From the NCBI GenBank assembly GCA_025336725.1, contig GCA_025336725.1_3647.1: a stretch of 64,000 nt of DNA; one strand, written 5' to 3'. The notes beneath the pieces are model-generated. The model saw only the letters and a list, made by a program, of their open reading frames with translations. It made no database searches and was not told the DNA's origin. Made by a program: the position numbers and the translations under genes. This DNA is from Escherichia coli (GTDB lineage Bacteria > Pseudomonadota > Gammaproteobacteria > Enterobacterales > Enterobacteriaceae). Positions 39,509-60,651 of this stretch are shown here, piece by piece (positions within the stretch are counted from its first letter, which is position 1; every line of letters starts with the position of its first letter).

Positions 39509-39585
39509 TGGTCTCCACGGAGTGATTCGAACACTCGACCTCCTGATCCCAAATCAGGCGCTCTACCAAGCTGAGCTACGCGGAG
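39509..39585 (-). tRNA. tRNA-Pro (anticodon UGG)
   Basis: Manual cloverleaf: 7-bp acceptor (one G-U), D-stem GCTC/GAGC, anticodon loop UUUGGGA, T-loop TTCGAAT, encoded CCA; 77 nt. Confidence 0.8.
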
Positions 39586-39594
39586 TTTATAATT

Positions 39595-39669
39595 TGGTGG
39601 CCCTGGGTGGAATTGAACCACCGTCTGGCGATTATGAGTCGCTTGCTTGAACCTTCCAGCTACAGGGCC
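39595..39669 (-). tRNA. tRNA-Met or tRNA-Ile2 (anticodon CAU)
   Basis: Manual fold: acceptor GGCCCTG/CAGGGCC, anticodon loop CUCAUAA, T-arm GGTGG-TTCAATT-CCACC, encoded CCA; D-stem only 3 bp; 75 nt. Confidence 0.65.
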
Positions 39670-39670
39670 A

Positions 39671-39746
39671 TGGTGCTGATGGCAGGACTCGAACCTGCAA
39701 CCTATTGATTACAAATCAATTGCACTACCAATTGTGCTACATCAGC
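39671..39746 (-). tRNA. tRNA-Thr (anticodon UGU)
   Basis: Manual fold: perfect 7-bp acceptor GCTGATG/CATCAGC, D-stem GCAC/GTGC, anticodon stem ATTGA/TCAAT, loop UUUGUAA, T-arm GCAGG-TTCGAGT-CCTGC, CCA; 76 nt. Confidence 0.8.
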
Positions 39747-39751
39747 AAAAA

Positions 39752-39850
39752 GGTGCTAGGCGATGGAATCGAACCACCTATGTATTCAACGACTACTTCG
39801 TCTATTTTCAGGATTAAAAATCCTCGCCCTTGCCAAAGGGCCTACCTAGC
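39752..39850 (-). tRNA. aberrant tRNA-like element (Lys-UUU-like anticodon loop, ~30-nt extra segment); possible pseudo-tRNA
   Basis: Good acceptor (GCTAGGT / GCCTAGC), D-arm (GCCC-N8-GGGC) and T-arm (GGTGG-TTCGATT-CCATC), but the anticodon stem is only 4 bp (loop UUUUUAA) and ~30 nt separate it from the T-arm; no encoded CCA; 99 nt. Confidence 0.3.
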
Positions 39851-39948
39851 ATATTATGCGAATCATGCTGCTAGTCGGCGATGACGACTGTAACATTTGT
39901 TAATCCGGTTCTGCTTCCGGAGCTCGCTTAATTTCATGATCCACGATC

Positions 39949-40038
39949 TGGCAGAGAGTAATGGAATCGAACCATCATCGAGGATATCTCAACGGGACGG
40001 TTTTCAAGACCGCTTGAGCACCATGCTCCCTACTCTCT
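39949..40038 (-). tRNA. tRNA-Ser (anticodon UGA)
   Basis: Manual fold: acceptor AGAGAGT/ACTCTCT, anticodon stem-loop GCGGT-CUUGAAA-ACCGT, ~20-nt variable arm with small hairpin, T-arm GATGG-TTCGATT-CCATT, CCA; 90 nt (type II). Confidence 0.7.
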
Positions 40039-40150
40039 TTTTATAAACAACACTGATAATGACACTGATTTTCGAACAGTTAGTGACTAGTATAAACGAC
40101 GATAAACATCAATGTCATTATCTATGTTATTTATCACAAATATGTAATTT

Positions 40151-40237
40151 TGGTGGGGAGTGATGGAGTCGAACCACCCGAGTCGCAATGACAATAGATT
40201 TACAGTCTACACCGCTACCCCTACGGTATAACTCCCC
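40151..40237 (-). tRNA. tRNA-Tyr (anticodon GUA)
   Basis: Manual fold: acceptor GGGGAGT/ACTCCCC, anticodon loop CUGUAAA, 15-nt variable arm hairpin (GTC-ATTGC-GAC), T-arm GGTGG-TTCGACT-CCATC, CCA; 87 nt. Confidence 0.75.
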
Positions 40238-40241
40238 GATT

Positions 40242-40316
40242 TGGCACCCCGTACTGGACTCGAACCAGTGTCAACGGCTTAGAAGGCCGCTGCTTTATCC
40301 ACTAAGCTAACAGGGC
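40242..40316 (-). tRNA. tRNA-Arg (anticodon UCU)
   Basis: Manual fold: acceptor GCCCTGT/ACGGGGT (two G-U pairs), D-stem GCTT/AAGC, anticodon stem GCGGC/GCCGT, loop CUUCUAA, T-arm ACTGG-TTCGAGT-CCAGT, CCA; 75 nt. Confidence 0.7.
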
Positions 40317-57107: not shown

Positions 57108-57311
57108 TTGGAGGCCACAATGACACTAAAGTTAACAATTCCAGACAGCTTTTCAGAAAACTTTATCCCAGAAATGATGGATAAGATGCGATCATTGCTT
57201 GATCAGATCGAGGAAGCTGTTTGGGAAGACGATGCTGTAGTGGCTAACGAGCTGGTAGATAAGTGTAAAAGTATTATTGATGCAGTTGAAGAATACCACG
57301 GAGGTTTTTGA
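57108..57311 (+). CDS. hypothetical acidic protein
   Basis: 67 aa ORF with GGAGG RBS. Confidence 0.4.
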   Translation: MEATMTLKLTIPDSFSENFIPEMMDKMRSLLDQIEEAVWEDDAVVANELVDKCKSIIDAVEEYHGGF

Positions 57312-58879
57312 TGGATATTATTGTTCTTAATGCACCACCGTGCTGCGTCCCGAGTGGTACAGAGTTCCTCACCAAATCCGGGTGGAAAAGTATAGAAGAT
57401 TTTGATAATGATTTCGTGGCGGTGTGCGATAAATTTGGGGCAATGCATTGGGAGATACCTGAATTTATTGAAGGCAATACTCCAGTTTTTGAAAAGGGCG
57501 TTTTTGCCACATGGTCTATGGTTTTAACACCTAACCACAAAGTTCTGTATGAAAACAGAAGAGGATCAAGAATTGCTAGAGAGTGGTCAGAGATAACTTT
57601 GGAATCCAAAACTGGCTACGATGGATATATACCTGCCACCTTCCATCAAGAGTCTGGAGAGGATGTGGACGATTTTGACCTGCTTAGAGTTGCAATCCTA
57701 GCAGACTCTTCTGAGGTTAAAAACCGAGAAGGTGTGTTAATGTTTAATATTAAAAAGGACCGTAAAAAGGAGAGGCTGCGATACTTATTTAAAAGAACTG
57801 GAGTAACCTTTTCCGAAAAAGAGTTTGAGAGTATGCCTGGTTACACCCGTTTTTTCATTCACAACAGCCCTTTCATGAAGAAAGATGGTATACCTAGCCA
57901 CTGGTGGAATCTCTCTTCCAAGGCCAGTGAAAAACTACTAAACGAGATGCTGAAATGGGATGGGTGCGAGAAATACAAATCTTTCTCAACCACTTCTAAA
58001 GAGGAGGCAGATCTATTTCAGCTTTTAGCAGCAAAATGTGGGAGAAAGGCCAAAATTGAAATAGATAACTACAAAAGGGAGTGTGATGAAGAGAGCAGAA
58101 CTCGTAGCGTTTGCTATGCGGTAAAAATTCTAAAGTCAGACTCTTATTCGATGCGTAAAAGTGGCGGATATGATAATCCCGATAAAGCTTTTCAACCTTA
58201 CAAAGAGGAGTTACCTGGGGGTAAGTGTTACTGCTTTACCACAACAACCGGATTTTGGGTGGCAAGACAAAACGGTATGGTGTTTTTAACAGGTAACAGT
58301 GGAAAAGACCATATTGCAGATCTCTTGTTGGAAGCTATTCCTAACTCACACCACCGTGAGGTTAAGGAGATGCTATTCAGTGTGGCAATTAAGGCAGCTG
58401 GTGTAACTCCTCAGCTCTGGAATGCACTTTATGACCGCCACTACAAAGAAGAGCCTTGCCCTTTCTTAATGATAGACGGCAAGCATGTTTCTCCGCGAGA
58501 ATGGATGATCCATTGTAGTGAAAATCTGATTAAACCTATCTTTGGTGAAGATGCTTTCGGTAAAGCCGCAGTCGCATCTTTGAAGAAAGATTTCCCTGAA
58601 GGTAAAGGGGTTATTGTTTACTCCGATGGTGGATTCAAAGAGGAGCTGGCATGCCTTAGTGAGTACGCATACAGCACAGGTGGAGATCTGTTGTTGTTCC
58701 GTATTCACCGTGTCGGATATGACTGGGGAAATGATTCCAGAACCTATCTAAGTCTGGAAAAGAACGGAATAAAAGGGATTGAGTTTGATGTTGTAAACCC
58801 TGAAGGTGCACCTTGGGAATGTGCATCGGAGATTGTGTGCAAGTATATTGATGCTAAAGAGGCACAAGAAGAATGTTAA
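57311..58879 (+). CDS. dNMP-kinase-like P-loop kinase interrupted by an intein
   Basis: ATG 57311 after GGAGG. Exteins MDIIVLNAPPC + SGKDHIADLL... reconstitute a T4 gp1-like P-loop (T4: MKLIFLSGVKRSGKDTTADFI); the C-extein (193 aa) has further kinase-like segments. Confidence 0.5.
   Translation: MDIIVLNAPPCCVPSGTEFLTKSGWKSIEDFDNDFVAVCDKFGAMHWEIPEFIEGNTPVFEKGVFATWSMVLTPNHKVLYENRRGSRIAREWSEITLESKTGYDGYIPATFHQESGEDVDDFDLLRVAILADSSEVKNREGVLMFNIKKDRKKERLRYLFKRTGVTFSEKEFESMPGYTRFFIHNSPFMKKDGIPSHWWNLSSKASEKLLNEMLKWDGCEKYKSFSTTSKEEADLFQLLAAKCGRKAKIEIDNYKRECDEESRTRSVCYAVKILKSDSYSMRKSGGYDNPDKAFQPYKEELPGGKCYCFTTTTGFWVARQNGMVFLTGNSGKDHIADLLLEAIPNSHHREVKEMLFSVAIKAAGVTPQLWNALYDRHYKEEPCPFLMIDGKHVSPREWMIHCSENLIKPIFGEDAFGKAAVASLKKDFPEGKGVIVYSDGGFKEELACLSEYAYSTGGDLLLFRIHRVGYDWGNDSRTYLSLEKNGIKGIEFDVVNPEGAPWECASEIVCKYIDAKEAQEEC
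57344..58297 (+). mobile_element. intein (Hint domain with LAGLIDADG-like endonuclease segment) in the kinase P-loop
   Basis: Starts CVPSGTEFLTKSGWKSIEDF (Hint block A), has TPNH (block B), LAGLIDADG-like LLRVAILADSS and FQLLAAKCG, ends ...MVFLTGN followed by Ser +1; 318 aa. Confidence 0.5.
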
Positions 58880-59466
58880 TCGGAATTGATGTAGATTTGA
58901 CACTGGTAGATTCAGGAACAGCATGGTGGGAGTGGTTGGAGCGTTTGTATGGTCCAGCCAGTAAGACAGTCGCTAAACCTTCTAACGGACTGATGTATTA
59001 CGATCTGTCAAAGTATTGGCCTGATCGCCCCAAAGAAAACATCATAGGGCCTTTTGATTTTTGGAGTGACCCGTTCCTCTACGACTTTCTTAAGCCTGAA
59101 GAGGGGGCTATTGAGGTTATGAAAGATTTGGTGGCTCGTGGTCACAAGCTTGCATTTATCTCGGTATGCAAGAAAGGTCACCTTGCATCTAAATCAAGGT
59201 TCTTAAAGCGTTGGACCAGTGATTTTATGGATCTTGACGATCACACCCAGGGCCACGGCTTCTACGCCACACATTTCAAAGGAAATGTGGCTGTAGATGT
59301 TATAATTGACGACAGGCATGAATACCTAAACCAATTCGCTTCACGACCTGAAGTTATTAAAATCCTAAAAGATACGCCTTATGAGCAATTCGAGGAGTTA
59401 AAGGTCAGTGTTGACTATACCGCTAATAGCTGGTATAAAATAGGAAAGTTTTTAGAAGGTATTTGA
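58873..59466 (+). CDS. HAD-superfamily phosphatase (probable 5'-deoxynucleotidase)
   Basis: 197 aa; N-terminal HAD motif I IGIDVDLTLVDS (DxDxT) and later Asp motif VIIDDR; sits among nucleotide-metabolism genes. Confidence 0.55.
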   Translation: MLIGIDVDLTLVDSGTAWWEWLERLYGPASKTVAKPSNGLMYYDLSKYWPDRPKENIIGPFDFWSDPFLYDFLKPEEGAIEVMKDLVARGHKLAFISVCKKGHLASKSRFLKRWTSDFMDLDDHTQGHGFYATHFKGNVAVDVIIDDRHEYLNQFASRPEVIKILKDTPYEQFEELKVSVDYTANSWYKIGKFLEGI

Positions 59467-59467
59467 A

Positions 59468-59668
59468 ATGGGCAGATGTTCTAAAGGTGGCGATCCTGTA
59501 GTCAGATACGGTGACTGGCTAGAGGTGTATGATCTGGGAGGTAAGCTGGTGTATGCCTCCAGGATCACCCAAGACATGTGCTCCGATATGTTCAACAGAT
59601 ACCTTGCATTTAAGGCCAACATAAACCCAGACGAAATTTCCAAAATTAAAACAAGGAGAGCTAAATAA
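59468..59668 (+). CDS. hypothetical protein
   Basis: 66 aa ORF between the phosphatase and thyX. Confidence 0.35.
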   Translation: MGRCSKGGDPVVRYGDWLEVYDLGGKLVYASRITQDMCSDMFNRYLAFKANINPDEISKIKTRRAK

Positions 59669-60651
59669 TGCTAAAACTGTGCACTGCAAAGATCATTGCT
59701 GACAGCATTTCCGAGAAAGGTAAGCGCATCACCACTTTTGAGCTAGAGTATCCTCGAATTATTCACTCAGAGCTTATGACGCATCGAGTATTCAGCCGAA
59801 ACGCCATGTCTTCCCGTGCAGTTCCTGTCGGCAAGATGCTGCAACAGATTGTGGAGAATCCTGCAATGCCAGTTCGCTTCGGTGCAAATAAGCGAGGGAT
59901 GGAAGATGGTGGGGAACACGATCAAAAGATCCGTGTAGAGTACACTGACATGGAGTTAACTCCTGAAGAATTTTGGAAAGAAGCTGCAAAAAACGCCGCT
60001 TGGCATGCAGAGAAGTTCGCACTTGCTGGTTACCATAAGCAAGTATGTAACCGCTTAGTGGAGCCTTTTCAACGCATGAAAACAGTTGTAACAAGCACCG
60101 AGTGGAATAATTTTTTCCACCTCCGTTGCTGGCACGATGCGGATCCTACGATTCAGATGTTGGCTAATTGTATGTGGGAAGCTCTTGTGAATAGCACCCC
60201 TGAGATCCTTAAACCAGGTCAATGGCACACCCCATATGTAGAGCACGTTTATTTGGACGGAGAGTTTAACTACGCTGTACGTGACACAGAAGGAAAGCTC
60301 TGCATCCTCGATACTAAAGAAGCTCTGTCTATCAGTGCTAGTTGCTGTGCACAAGTATCTTATCGAAATATTGACAGCACGTTTGAAAAGGCAGACAGTG
60401 TGGCTAAAAAATTGATTGGTGGGGATCGTATTCATGCAAGCCCTTACGAGCACCAGGCAACACCTATGGATCACGATAACGCAATGGAACGTTTAAACTA
60501 CTATCTATCTTCATGTGAAATCACACAAGACAGCTGTGTTTGGCAGGAAGGTGTAACCCATCAAGACCGTGATGGTAAATTCTGGTCTGCCAACTTTTGT
60601 GGGTGGGTTCAGCACAGACAACTGCTTAATAACCACTTCGTGAAAGGTTAA
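59668..60651 (+). CDS. thyX: flavin-dependent thymidylate synthase ThyX-like
   Basis: 327 aa; TFELEYPRIIHSELMTHRVFSRNAMSSRA matches the ThyX signature region (..[30 protein letters not shown] in T. maritima); longer than typical ThyX. Confidence 0.6.
   Translation: MLKLCTAKIIADSISEKGKRITTFELEYPRIIHSELMTHRVFSRNAMSSRAVPVGKMLQQIVENPAMPVRFGANKRGMEDGGEHDQKIRVEYTDMELTPEEFWKEAAKNAAWHAEKFALAGYHKQVCNRLVEPFQRMKTVVTSTEWNNFFHLRCWHDADPTIQMLANCMWEALVNSTPEILKPGQWHTPYVEHVYLDGEFNYAVRDTEGKLCILDTKEALSISASCCAQVSYRNIDSTFEKADSVAKKLIGGDRIHASPYEHQATPMDHDNAMERLNYYLSSCEITQDSCVWQEGVTHQDRDGKFWSANFCGWVQHRQLLNNHFVKG

Follow-up and report, generated by a model that had tools for sequence, protein, structure and literature searches.

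A probable LAGLIDADG-endonuclease intein in the Walker A loop of a T4 gp1-like nucleotide kinase gene of a vequintavirus

The 64,000-nucleotide (nt) stretch of DNA analysed here (contig GCA_025336725.1_3647.1 of the Escherichia coli assembly GCA_025336725.1), hereafter the window, is part of a Vequintavirus genome, i.e., that of an rV5-like E. coli myovirus. It harbors a gene for a deoxynucleoside monophosphate (dNMP) kinase resembling gp1 of phage T4, and this gene is very probably interrupted in its Walker A loop by a full-size intein with a LAGLIDADG homing endonuclease. The insertion lies between the variable fourth residue of the loop (Cys11) and the serine of the S-G-K-D sequence. The kind of element is ordinary; the host gene and the insertion site have not been described previously in the literature searched.

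Presence, absence, and borders of the insert

A query of 2.5 kb (2501 nt) around the open reading frame (ORF) matched 120 phage records at 90-98% identity. All but one of them, 119 of 120 related Vequintavirus records, lack exactly 954 nt, such that two match pieces span 1547 of the 2501 query nt. The sole record among the 120 to match the entire query is that of Escherichia phage JEP1 (MT740314), so that copies are present in two of 121 vequintavirus sequences (the window and JEP1). Aligning the protein and the DNA with those of JEP1, Gotham, and Mangalyan puts the borders of the insert at amino acids (aa) 12-329 or nt 57344-58297, and the borders proposed in an initial annotation of the sequence are exactly those of the segment that the 119 phages lack. 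The insert is in-frame, and the reading frame is open over 522 codons in the three independent occupied alleles that were compared (the window, JEP1, and the metagenomic P0001 from contig L004). The insert is a natural presence/absence polymorphism and not a chance resemblance.

Empty alleles read MDIIVLNAPP-S-SGKDHIADLL, while occupied alleles read MDIIVLNAPP-C-(318 aa)-SGKDHIADLL. The residue preceding the intein (position -1) is thus Cys in occupied and Ser in empty vequintavirus alleles; across the kinase family this position varies (S, K, Q, Y, L, M, G, E, R), and it is the only loop position that is not conserved. Removal of the insert gives MDIIVLNAPP-C-SGKD, a 204-aa protein in which A-P-P-x-S-G-K-D is restored. 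At the DNA level, the empty site is ...CCACCTAGC↓AGTGGCAAGGAT..., where the arrow, here and below, marks the insertion point; the stretch that spans the empty insertion site is ...AACGCCCCACCTAGCAGTGGCAAGGATCACATT.... An intein start at Cys11 was considered and rejected, as it would leave a Walker A loop one residue shorter than in all 79 homologues of the spliced product; on this basis, Cys12 is intein residue 1.

The precursor ORF extends from the ATG at 57311 to a stop codon ending at 58879. The length of 523 aa given in the initial annotation applies if the TTG at 57308 is counted as the start, and becomes 522 aa from the ATG; the features quoted there (MDIIVLNAPPC, CVPSGTEFLTKSGWKSIEDF, TPNH, and ...MVFLTGN followed by SGKD) are all present. 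No other copy of the intein was found in the rest of the window. Scans of IMG/VR returned no close relative of the window intein, no intein-less allele with Cys at -1, and one empty-site vequintavirus contig only.

The host kinase

Residues 1-199 of the 204-aa spliced protein match the deoxynucleoside monophosphate kinase family PHROG 139 (4.9e-43). The score is 148.8 bits for the spliced product versus 133.5 bits for the precursor, in which aa 329-517 form the matching region; the profile search thereby agrees with the earlier assignment of the C-terminal region as a kinase. A database search returned 79 homologues of the spliced product, all of about 200 aa, and the insert is absent from all of them. 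The host fold was modelled on P0153, a 94%-identical homologue (AlphaFold2, 21 aligned sequences), with a predicted local distance difference test score (pLDDT) of 91.2. In this model, strand β-1 comprises residues 2-7 and helix 1 begins at residue 14, which places the insertion point in the middle of the P-loop. Foldseek comparison of the model with the Protein Data Bank (PDB) gives T4 dNMP kinase (1DEK) as the first match (E 5.9e-6, TM-score 0.60), followed by adenylate and other small kinases. The PHROG match, the P0153 model, and the 1DEK match all bear out the proposal of a Walker A insertion in a T4 gp1-like kinase.

T4 gp1 (PDB 1DEK) starts with MKLIFLSGVKRSGKD and the spliced product with MDIIVLNAPPCSGKD. 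The extein alignment places x-x-x-x-S-G-K-D equally far from the start codon in both, which is the spacing that the initial annotation had pointed out. Both proteins belong to PHROG 139 and have the same P-loop kinase fold, with an N-terminal β-strand preceding x-x-x-x-S-G-K-D. However, they share only about 14% identity, differ in length (241 aa in T4 gp1 and 204 aa in the host), and the first Walker A position is Ala in the host and not Gly. P0046, a more T4-like metagenomic kinase carrying the same intein, matches 1DEK by sequence once spliced (E 7.2e-5), with MKVILISGKAR↓CGKD aligned against MKLIFLSGVKRSGKD.

The vequintavirus kinase-family profile did not reach 1DEK when compared with PDB sequences, and scanning the precursor, the intein, and the spliced extein with Pfam and NCBIfam models brought no meaningful match. 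The dNMP kinase name and the predicted activity rest on family annotation and fold. Positions 97-191 of the kinase-family profile gave a marginal PDB match, centred on S/R-DG-x-F, to the PIWI region of an Argonaute (5i4a, E 5.8e-4); although it scores above any PDB kinase, this match is regarded as probably spurious.

Intein signature and family

The window intein has the nucleophile Cys1, the block B sequence TPNH (T73-P-N-H76), a terminal Gly-Asn (Asn329), and Ser at +1 (Ser330). Together with the delimited in-frame insert and the match of its model to PI-SceI and the VMA inteins (see below), these features uphold its identification as an intein. A family profile built from four members and run against 1.84 billion representatives returned 9,874 cluster representatives, 675 of them below 1e-30. 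Nearly all of the best 150 matches cover the full 314 positions, at varied sites in unrelated host proteins of 337-1542 aa. The intein family is large and mostly phage-borne.

Family residue counts were taken from a 153-member alignment. Position 1 is Cys in 150 of 153 members. In block A, Thr17 and Trp25 are invariant (153/153) and Glu18 is nearly so (152/153). Block B has Ser, Thr, or Cys at B:7 in all 153, His at B:10 in 152, and Val or Ile, but never Trp, at B:12. Block F reads Tyr-Cys-Phe, with the Cys in 152/153, and an Arg of the block F/G region is found in all members (153/153). The terminus is formed by Thr (145), Gly (145), and Asn (152), and is followed at +1 by Ser (75), Cys (62), or Thr (15); position -1 is Gly in 125. 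The junctions are kept as C...TGN↓[S/C/T], most commonly in the Walker A context G-x-x-G↓[S/C/T]-G-K-[S/T]. Occupied vequintavirus-type alleles have a Cys at -1 directly before Cys1 (PPC↓C; 57341-57346) and a C-Y-C pair in block F (Cys306 and Cys308; 58226-58234); in most of the family, position -1 is Gly and Lys stands in place of Cys306.

The penultimate His (G:6) is absent from the window intein, which has Gly328 in its place, and His is absent from its last 30 residues. The initial annotation had remarked on the missing His as unusual. The Gly-Asn terminus is real, but because Gly is penultimate in 145 of 153 members, the lack of the penultimate His is the family norm. Phage class 1 inteins often have Gly, Lys, or Ser in its place (Kelley et al. 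2016, PMC5050341); with Gly in the penultimate position, splicing of the Bethlehem RDF intein goes to completion, and it becomes slower when this Gly is changed to His (PMC5050341). Inteins without a penultimate His are able to splice according to Chen et al. 2000, as cited in PMC4031507. By analogy with these inteins, the Gly-Asn terminus is compatible with splicing.

In PHROG, the window intein matches the intein-bearing parts of the "PhoH-like" (1.6e-20) and ribonucleotide reductase (RNR) families. A phmmer search of the precursor against PDB sequences found nothing, and the best PDB sequence match of the family profile is the intein 6zgq, a weak match (E 1.1e-3) that covers blocks A and B.

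Structure model and endonuclease domain

The AlphaFold2 model of the window intein has a mean pLDDT of 62.9. Its central domain, modelled at 77-91, contains two alpha-beta-beta-alpha-beta-beta-alpha repeats (intein residues 110-262). The top PDB matches of the intein model in Foldseek are PI-SceI (2.3e-8), the Tli and Pho VMA inteins, PI-PfuI, and I-DmoI; the central domain superposes on I-DmoI with a target TM-score of 0.60 and a root-mean-square deviation of 4.1 over about 168 columns. The two LAGLIDADG motifs, ILAD132SS and LKWD217GC, are 85 residues apart and keep their acidic residues, which are conserved in 150/153 (first) and 151/153 (second) family members; the Gly that follows the first motif Asp is replaced by Ser in the window intein (G133S). 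The motifs, the predicted repeats, and the I-DmoI match agree with the LAGLIDADG segment recognized earlier. For the splicing domain, intein precursors are the best whole-model Foldseek matches, with parts modelled below a pLDDT of 50 and the Pfam Hint model unmatched.

The comparison with Pfam models that the initial annotation proposed had a mixed outcome. Neither Hint nor LAGLIDADG models, including the curated LAGLIDADG_3 (PF14528), match the window protein, whereas among the 64 sequences scanned (the window protein and its relatives), PF14528 matches 9, with a best value of 1.5e-7.

Phage class 1 LAGLIDADG inteins in P-loop ATPases (mycobacteriophage TerL, primase, and RDF; PMC5050341) have the same Cys1, T/S-x-x-H, terminal Asn, and +1 Ser/Cys/Thr, as well as the embedded LAGLIDADG domain, a size of about 317 aa, an ATP-binding-motif site, and an often glycine penultimate residue; that the P-loop is a known intein hot spot, as the initial annotation stated, is documented by the same study. 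Homology to the window intein can be detected in the primase intein of mycobacteriophage Bigfoot (gp50; ...AEGE↓CLRGD...VTGN↓CDT). Unlike the hosts in that study, in which the word "kinase" occurs 0 times, the window host is a small dNMP kinase, and its insertion point precedes by two residues the "classic" position, which falls between Lys and Thr of the Walker motif.

PI-SceI (yeast VMA1) and the archaeal VMA inteins (1ef0, 1vde, 7qsu, 7qst) have the overall two-part architecture predicted for the window intein, in which a LAGLIDADG endonuclease is embedded in a Hint splicing domain. No other structures match the window intein model as well (E 2e-8 to 1e-6), at 12-14% identity and TM-scores of 0.46-0.53 to a moderately confident model. 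PI-SceI differs from the window intein in its His-Asn terminus and in an extra DNA-recognition region.

Selection and signature of homing

Ratios of nonsynonymous to synonymous substitution rates (dN/dS) were estimated by the Nei-Gojobori method. The intein copies of the window and JEP1 differ by 20 synonymous and 4 non-synonymous changes, which gives a dN/dS of 0.048; for the inteins of the window and L004, the ratio is 0.081. The endonuclease domain alone, at 0.05-0.08, is as constrained as the splicing domain, and the C-extein has a value of 0.03 (window versus JEP1). These low ratios point to purifying selection on both the splicing and the endonuclease functions.

The intein and the surrounding gene have diverged to different extents. 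Between the window and JEP1, the synonymous divergence (dS) is 0.11 in the intein versus 0.60 in the C-extein. At the DNA level, the window C-extein is 97.6% identical to that of the intein-less Gotham but 89% identical to that of JEP1, and the same intein therefore resides in two allelic backgrounds. Six substitutions beside the insertion are common to the window and JEP1, beyond which the window returns to Gotham-like sequence. On the 5' side, CCT AGC is replaced in occupied alleles by CCG TGC, and on the 3' side, GGC AAG GAT CAC is replaced by GGA AAA GAC CAT. The joined flanks (126 nt) show at most 94.4% identity to any of the 118 full-coverage empty alleles.

A second kinase lineage (66% aa identity) shows a related arrangement. 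Its occupied member L004 reads CCA CCA TGT↓intein↓AGC GGT (PPC), and its empty relative L005 reads CCG ATG AAA↓TCG GGC (PMK). The inteins of the two kinase lineages are 82% identical, versus 66% for the exteins. Flank polymorphisms confined to occupied alleles and an intein less diverged than its extein fit recent homing, and, on this indirect sequence evidence, the pattern is that expected where an endonuclease drives gene conversion and the co-conversion tracts are short.

The C-extein DNA of JEP1 is 88-89% identical to both the window and Gotham, while its surroundings are 96-98% identical; its diverged C-extein may represent a long co-conversion tract from a diverged donor. The JEP1 kinase ends 4 aa early (...AKEG), such that the overlap with the next gene is lost. 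The mosaicism is reversed at window positions 59500-60500 (ThyX gene, 59668-60651), which are 97.3% identical to JEP1 and 90.8% to Gotham, placing recombination breakpoints between the kinase and ThyX genes.

Alternative readings and splicing class

Several observations weigh against an intact, active intein. Neither a penultimate nor a block-F His is available to assist Asn cyclization, the window protein is without a Pfam or NCBIfam match (Hint, Intein_splicing, and LAGLIDADG models), and the confidence of the AlphaFold2 model is only moderate, with intein residues 44-97 and 265-291, in the splicing domain, below 50. In addition, of the 57 columns that are strongly conserved in the family, 14 depart from the consensus in the window intein; among these deviations are, in the endonuclease domain, the Gly-to-Ser change in LAGLIDADG motif 1 as well as K192D, Q205A, and R254Y, so that activity or specificity could be altered. 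The unmatched Hint model and the missing penultimate His would suit an insert that no longer splices, the gene being an inactivated kinase or a fusion protein with another role, and an unrelated fused domain was the alternative raised in the initial annotation. Such a reading is very improbable, as the nucleophiles and family-invariant residues (Cys1, His B:10, Cys F:4, Arg319, Thr-Gly-Asn, and Ser+1) are intact, the strongly purifying selection on the C-extein is unexpected of a dead kinase, the frame has stayed open in each of the three independent occupied alleles, and the same architecture is found in thousands of relatives, in essential genes (helicases, RNR, terminase, RecA). It is also quite unlikely that splicing works but the endonuclease is inactive, which would make the intein a passenger, passed on vertically or transferred through ordinary recombination instead of homing. 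The four endonuclease changes named above are non-conservative and fall at positions conserved to at least 80%, the intein is rare among vequintavirus sequences, and the IMG/VR scans gave no close relative. However, both catalytic Asp residues are kept, the endonuclease domain is under constraint equal to that of the splicing domain, the intein is far less diverged than the gene around it, and short flank tracts are common to two genomic backgrounds and recur across two kinase lineages; the deviant residues may instead reflect another target (PP[S/C]↓SGKD rather than G↓SGKT).

The route of splicing admits a further alternative, in which Cys308, polarized by His76 and Thr327, attacks the N-terminal junction or relays the N-extein, such that Cys1 would not be the sole first nucleophile. 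Class 3 inteins (e.g., Bethlehem DnaB and AceL NrdHF, 6zgq) are defined by a WCT triplet of Trp B:12, Cys F:4, and Thr G:5 (PMC2807308), and two of these three residues are near-invariant in the window family (Cys F:4 in 152/153, Thr G:5 in 145/153). Cys308 precedes the terminal Asn by 21 residues, which is the spacing of Cys320 and Asn341 in the class 3 Bethlehem DnaB intein (PMC2807308). The window family, like AceL NrdHF with its "MCT" triplet (PMC7891396), is without both the penultimate and the block-F His, and it is AceL NrdHF that the family profile matches best among PDB sequences. Phage origin and a preference for P-loops are likewise shared with class 3 (PMC2807308; PMC4031507). In contrast to class 3 inteins, which start with a residue other than Cys, Ser, or Thr, the window family has conserved Cys1, which would be unexpected if this residue were dispensable, and has Val or Ile where class 3 has Trp. 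The window triplet reads "VCT" (Val78, Cys308, Thr327), Cys is the second most common F:4 residue among inteins generally (PMC4031507), and the register of block F is set by spacing and motif and not by a solved structure. A class 3-like or mixed route is rather improbable. Assignment to class 3 was rejected, since two defining features differ (Cys1 is present and B:12 is not Trp), and the intein is filed as class 1 on the basis of the conserved Cys1 and the general frequency of Cys at F:4.

In a broader and more speculative reading, which is considered unlikely, this very large "C1...VCT...TGN" phage family would be a mechanistic and evolutionary bridge between classes 1 and 3. With Cys1 retained, the block-F Cys and block-G Thr invariant, and both assisting His residues lost, it would splice via both thioesters (Cys1, Cys F:4, and then +1) and might represent the P-loop-homing stock of class 3, with an endonuclease that appears to track DNA for G↓[S/C/T]-G-K. 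If true, such tracking would explain the spread to unrelated genes (S-adenosylmethionine synthetase and small nucleotide kinases).

Proposed mechanism

For the preferred reading, that of a class 1 intein with a homing endonuclease in the kinase Walker A loop, the insertion, its motifs, the folds, the constraint, and the signature of transfer are consistent with the following route, in which splicing, DNA cleavage, and kinase activity are predicted steps. The 59.5-kDa precursor, in which no P-loop is formed, should be inactive. Cys12 (intein residue 1) would form a thioester with the N-extein, assisted by Thr73 and His76 of block B, and the N-extein would then pass to Ser330 (+1). Cyclization of Asn329 would free the 36.7-kDa intein, and an O-to-N shift would complete a 22.8-kDa kinase with the loop A-P-P-C-S-G-K-D; the predicted ligated junction peptide is ...VLNAPPCSGKDHIADLL.... 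In a co-infecting phage, the endonuclease domain would cut the intein-less allele, and repair off the occupied allele would copy the intein together with a few flanking bases.

Other hosts and novelty

In a tblastn search of phage genomes, 165 records match the intein, 164 of them covering at least 80%. The host genes encode PhoH-like and RecD-like proteins, primase/helicase, RtcB, NrdA/NrdB, terminase, NAMPT, thymidylate synthase, and DNA polymerase. Among metagenomic proteins, five PHROG 139 kinases (P0002, P0003, P0012, P0017, and P0046) carry the intein at the same loop position, and P0134 is a thymidylate kinase with an intein in the same arrangement. By pairwise identity, the inteins of the window, P0001, P0012, and P0002 are nearest mutual relatives, while those of P0003, P0046, and P0017 are closer to inteins of other hosts; these pairwise values, which are not a tree, suggest more than one invasion of dNMP kinases.

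A search of the literature on inteins in dNMP or nucleotide kinases or in Vequintavirus found no description of a dNMP-kinase intein. For Vequintavirinae, the inteins reported so far are confined to helicase, NrdA, and NrdB (PMC7344957), and the papers found on Felix O1, an Asgard virus, and Certrevirus place inteins in RNR or helicase. The JEP1 copy is annotated as "hypothetical protein", as is every occupied allele seen. The initial annotation, which did not recognize a kinase of this family as a described intein host, is therefore right as regards the literature searched. The window gene is, however, not unique as a host, since the site is also occupied in at least five other metagenomic dNMP-kinase lineages and in JEP1.

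S-adenosylmethionine synthetase (MetK) is a further host, with the intein at GGGAF↓SGKD in P0018, P0036, P0039, P0120, and P0123; all three S-AdoMet_synt domains are matched in 6 of the 64 scanned sequences. As MetK is not a P-loop NTPase, the choice of site by the intein family seems to depend on the local sequence, G↓SGK(D), and not on the fold. In addition, 19 GenBank records named "Campylobacter phage" (MG0656xx, host C. jejuni) are about 98% identical to E. coli rV5-like phages over this region, which looks like mislabelling or contamination.

Implications

With this gene, a small nucleotide kinase joins the list of intein hosts, and the Walker A hot spot is seen to be used in a minimal P-loop enzyme, the activity of which must depend wholly on splicing. 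The phages offer a tractable homing system: among easily cultured E. coli phages, JEP1 and the window phage carry the intein, and rV5 and more than 100 relatives do not, so that mixed infections could be used to measure homing frequency, length of the co-conversion tract, and any fitness cost. Because the family is not seen by Pfam or NCBIfam and its alleles are labelled "hypothetical protein", automated annotation misses some 10^4 cluster representatives. The occurrence of the block-F Cys and block-G Thr alongside Cys1 bears on how class 3 splicing evolved.

Gene layout and genomic setting

The features of the precursor gene are collected in Table 1. The TGA of the upstream ORF overlaps the start codon of the precursor gene (TGATG).

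Table 1. Layout of the interrupted kinase gene and its flanks, in window coordinates
Feature	Position	Strand	Description and basis
Ribosome-binding site GGAGG	57300..57304	+	6 nt 5' of ATG; read off alignment and ORF list
Whole precursor gene (N-extein, intein, and C-extein)	57311..58879	+	522 aa, 59.5 kDa
N-extein MDIIVLNAPPC, aa 1-11	57311..57343	+	Strand β-1 and first half of Walker A; aligned with intein-less alleles
5' flank polymorphisms of occupied alleles	57338..57343	+	CCG TGC versus CCT AGC/AGT (two empty alleles aligned)
Putative intein, aa 12-329, 318 aa, 36.7 kDa	57344..58297	+	954-nt absence, family profile, fold match
Splicing block A CVPSGTEFLTKSG, nucleophile Cys1 (aa 12)	57344..57382	+	153-member family alignment
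Splicing block B MVLTPNHKVLY	57518..57550	+	Thr73 = B:7, His76 = B:10, Val78 = B:12
LAGLIDADG homing-endonuclease domain, about aa 106-290	57626..58180	+	AlphaFold2 model, Foldseek, dN/dS; Pfam in relatives
LAGLIDADG motif 1 LLRVAILADSS, Asp132	57680-57712	+	
LAGLIDADG motif 2 LLNEMLKWDGC, Asp217	57935-57967	+	
Splicing blocks F and G GGKCYCFTTTTGFWVARQNGMVFLTGN	58217..58297	+	Cys308 F:4, Arg319, Thr327 G:5, Gly328 G:6, Asn329 terminal
C-extein, aa 330-522	58298..58879	+	Ser+1 then GKD, second half of Walker A, kinase body, stop; PHROG 139, homologue model
3' flank polymorphisms, four silent	58298..58312	+	AGT GGA AAA GAC CAT versus AGT GGC/GGT AAG GAT CAC (two empty alleles aligned)

The neighbouring genes are those of nucleotide and DNA metabolism, i.e., an exonuclease, an N6-adenine methyltransferase, an NT5C-like nucleotidase, ThyX, and a class Ia RNR. 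A 197-aa ORF (58873-59466, + strand) overlaps the kinase stop by 7 nt, and the two are probably translationally coupled. The homologue of this ORF in L005 has a weak match to Pfam NT5C (5'(3')-deoxyribonucleotidase), which would place the genes for a dNMP kinase and a dNMP phosphatase next to each other.

In the metagenomic phages L004 (7250-9489) and L005 (6299-8630), the anaerobic RNR gene (NrdD) is present in several ORFs, and HNH_3 endonuclease ORFs lie between the NrdD pieces in L005; this arrangement suggests that introns or homing endonucleases have invaded nearby genes for nucleotide metabolism in these phages. Six tRNA genes (Pro, Met, Thr, Ser, Tyr, and Arg) are also clustered in the window at 39509-40316 (- strand).

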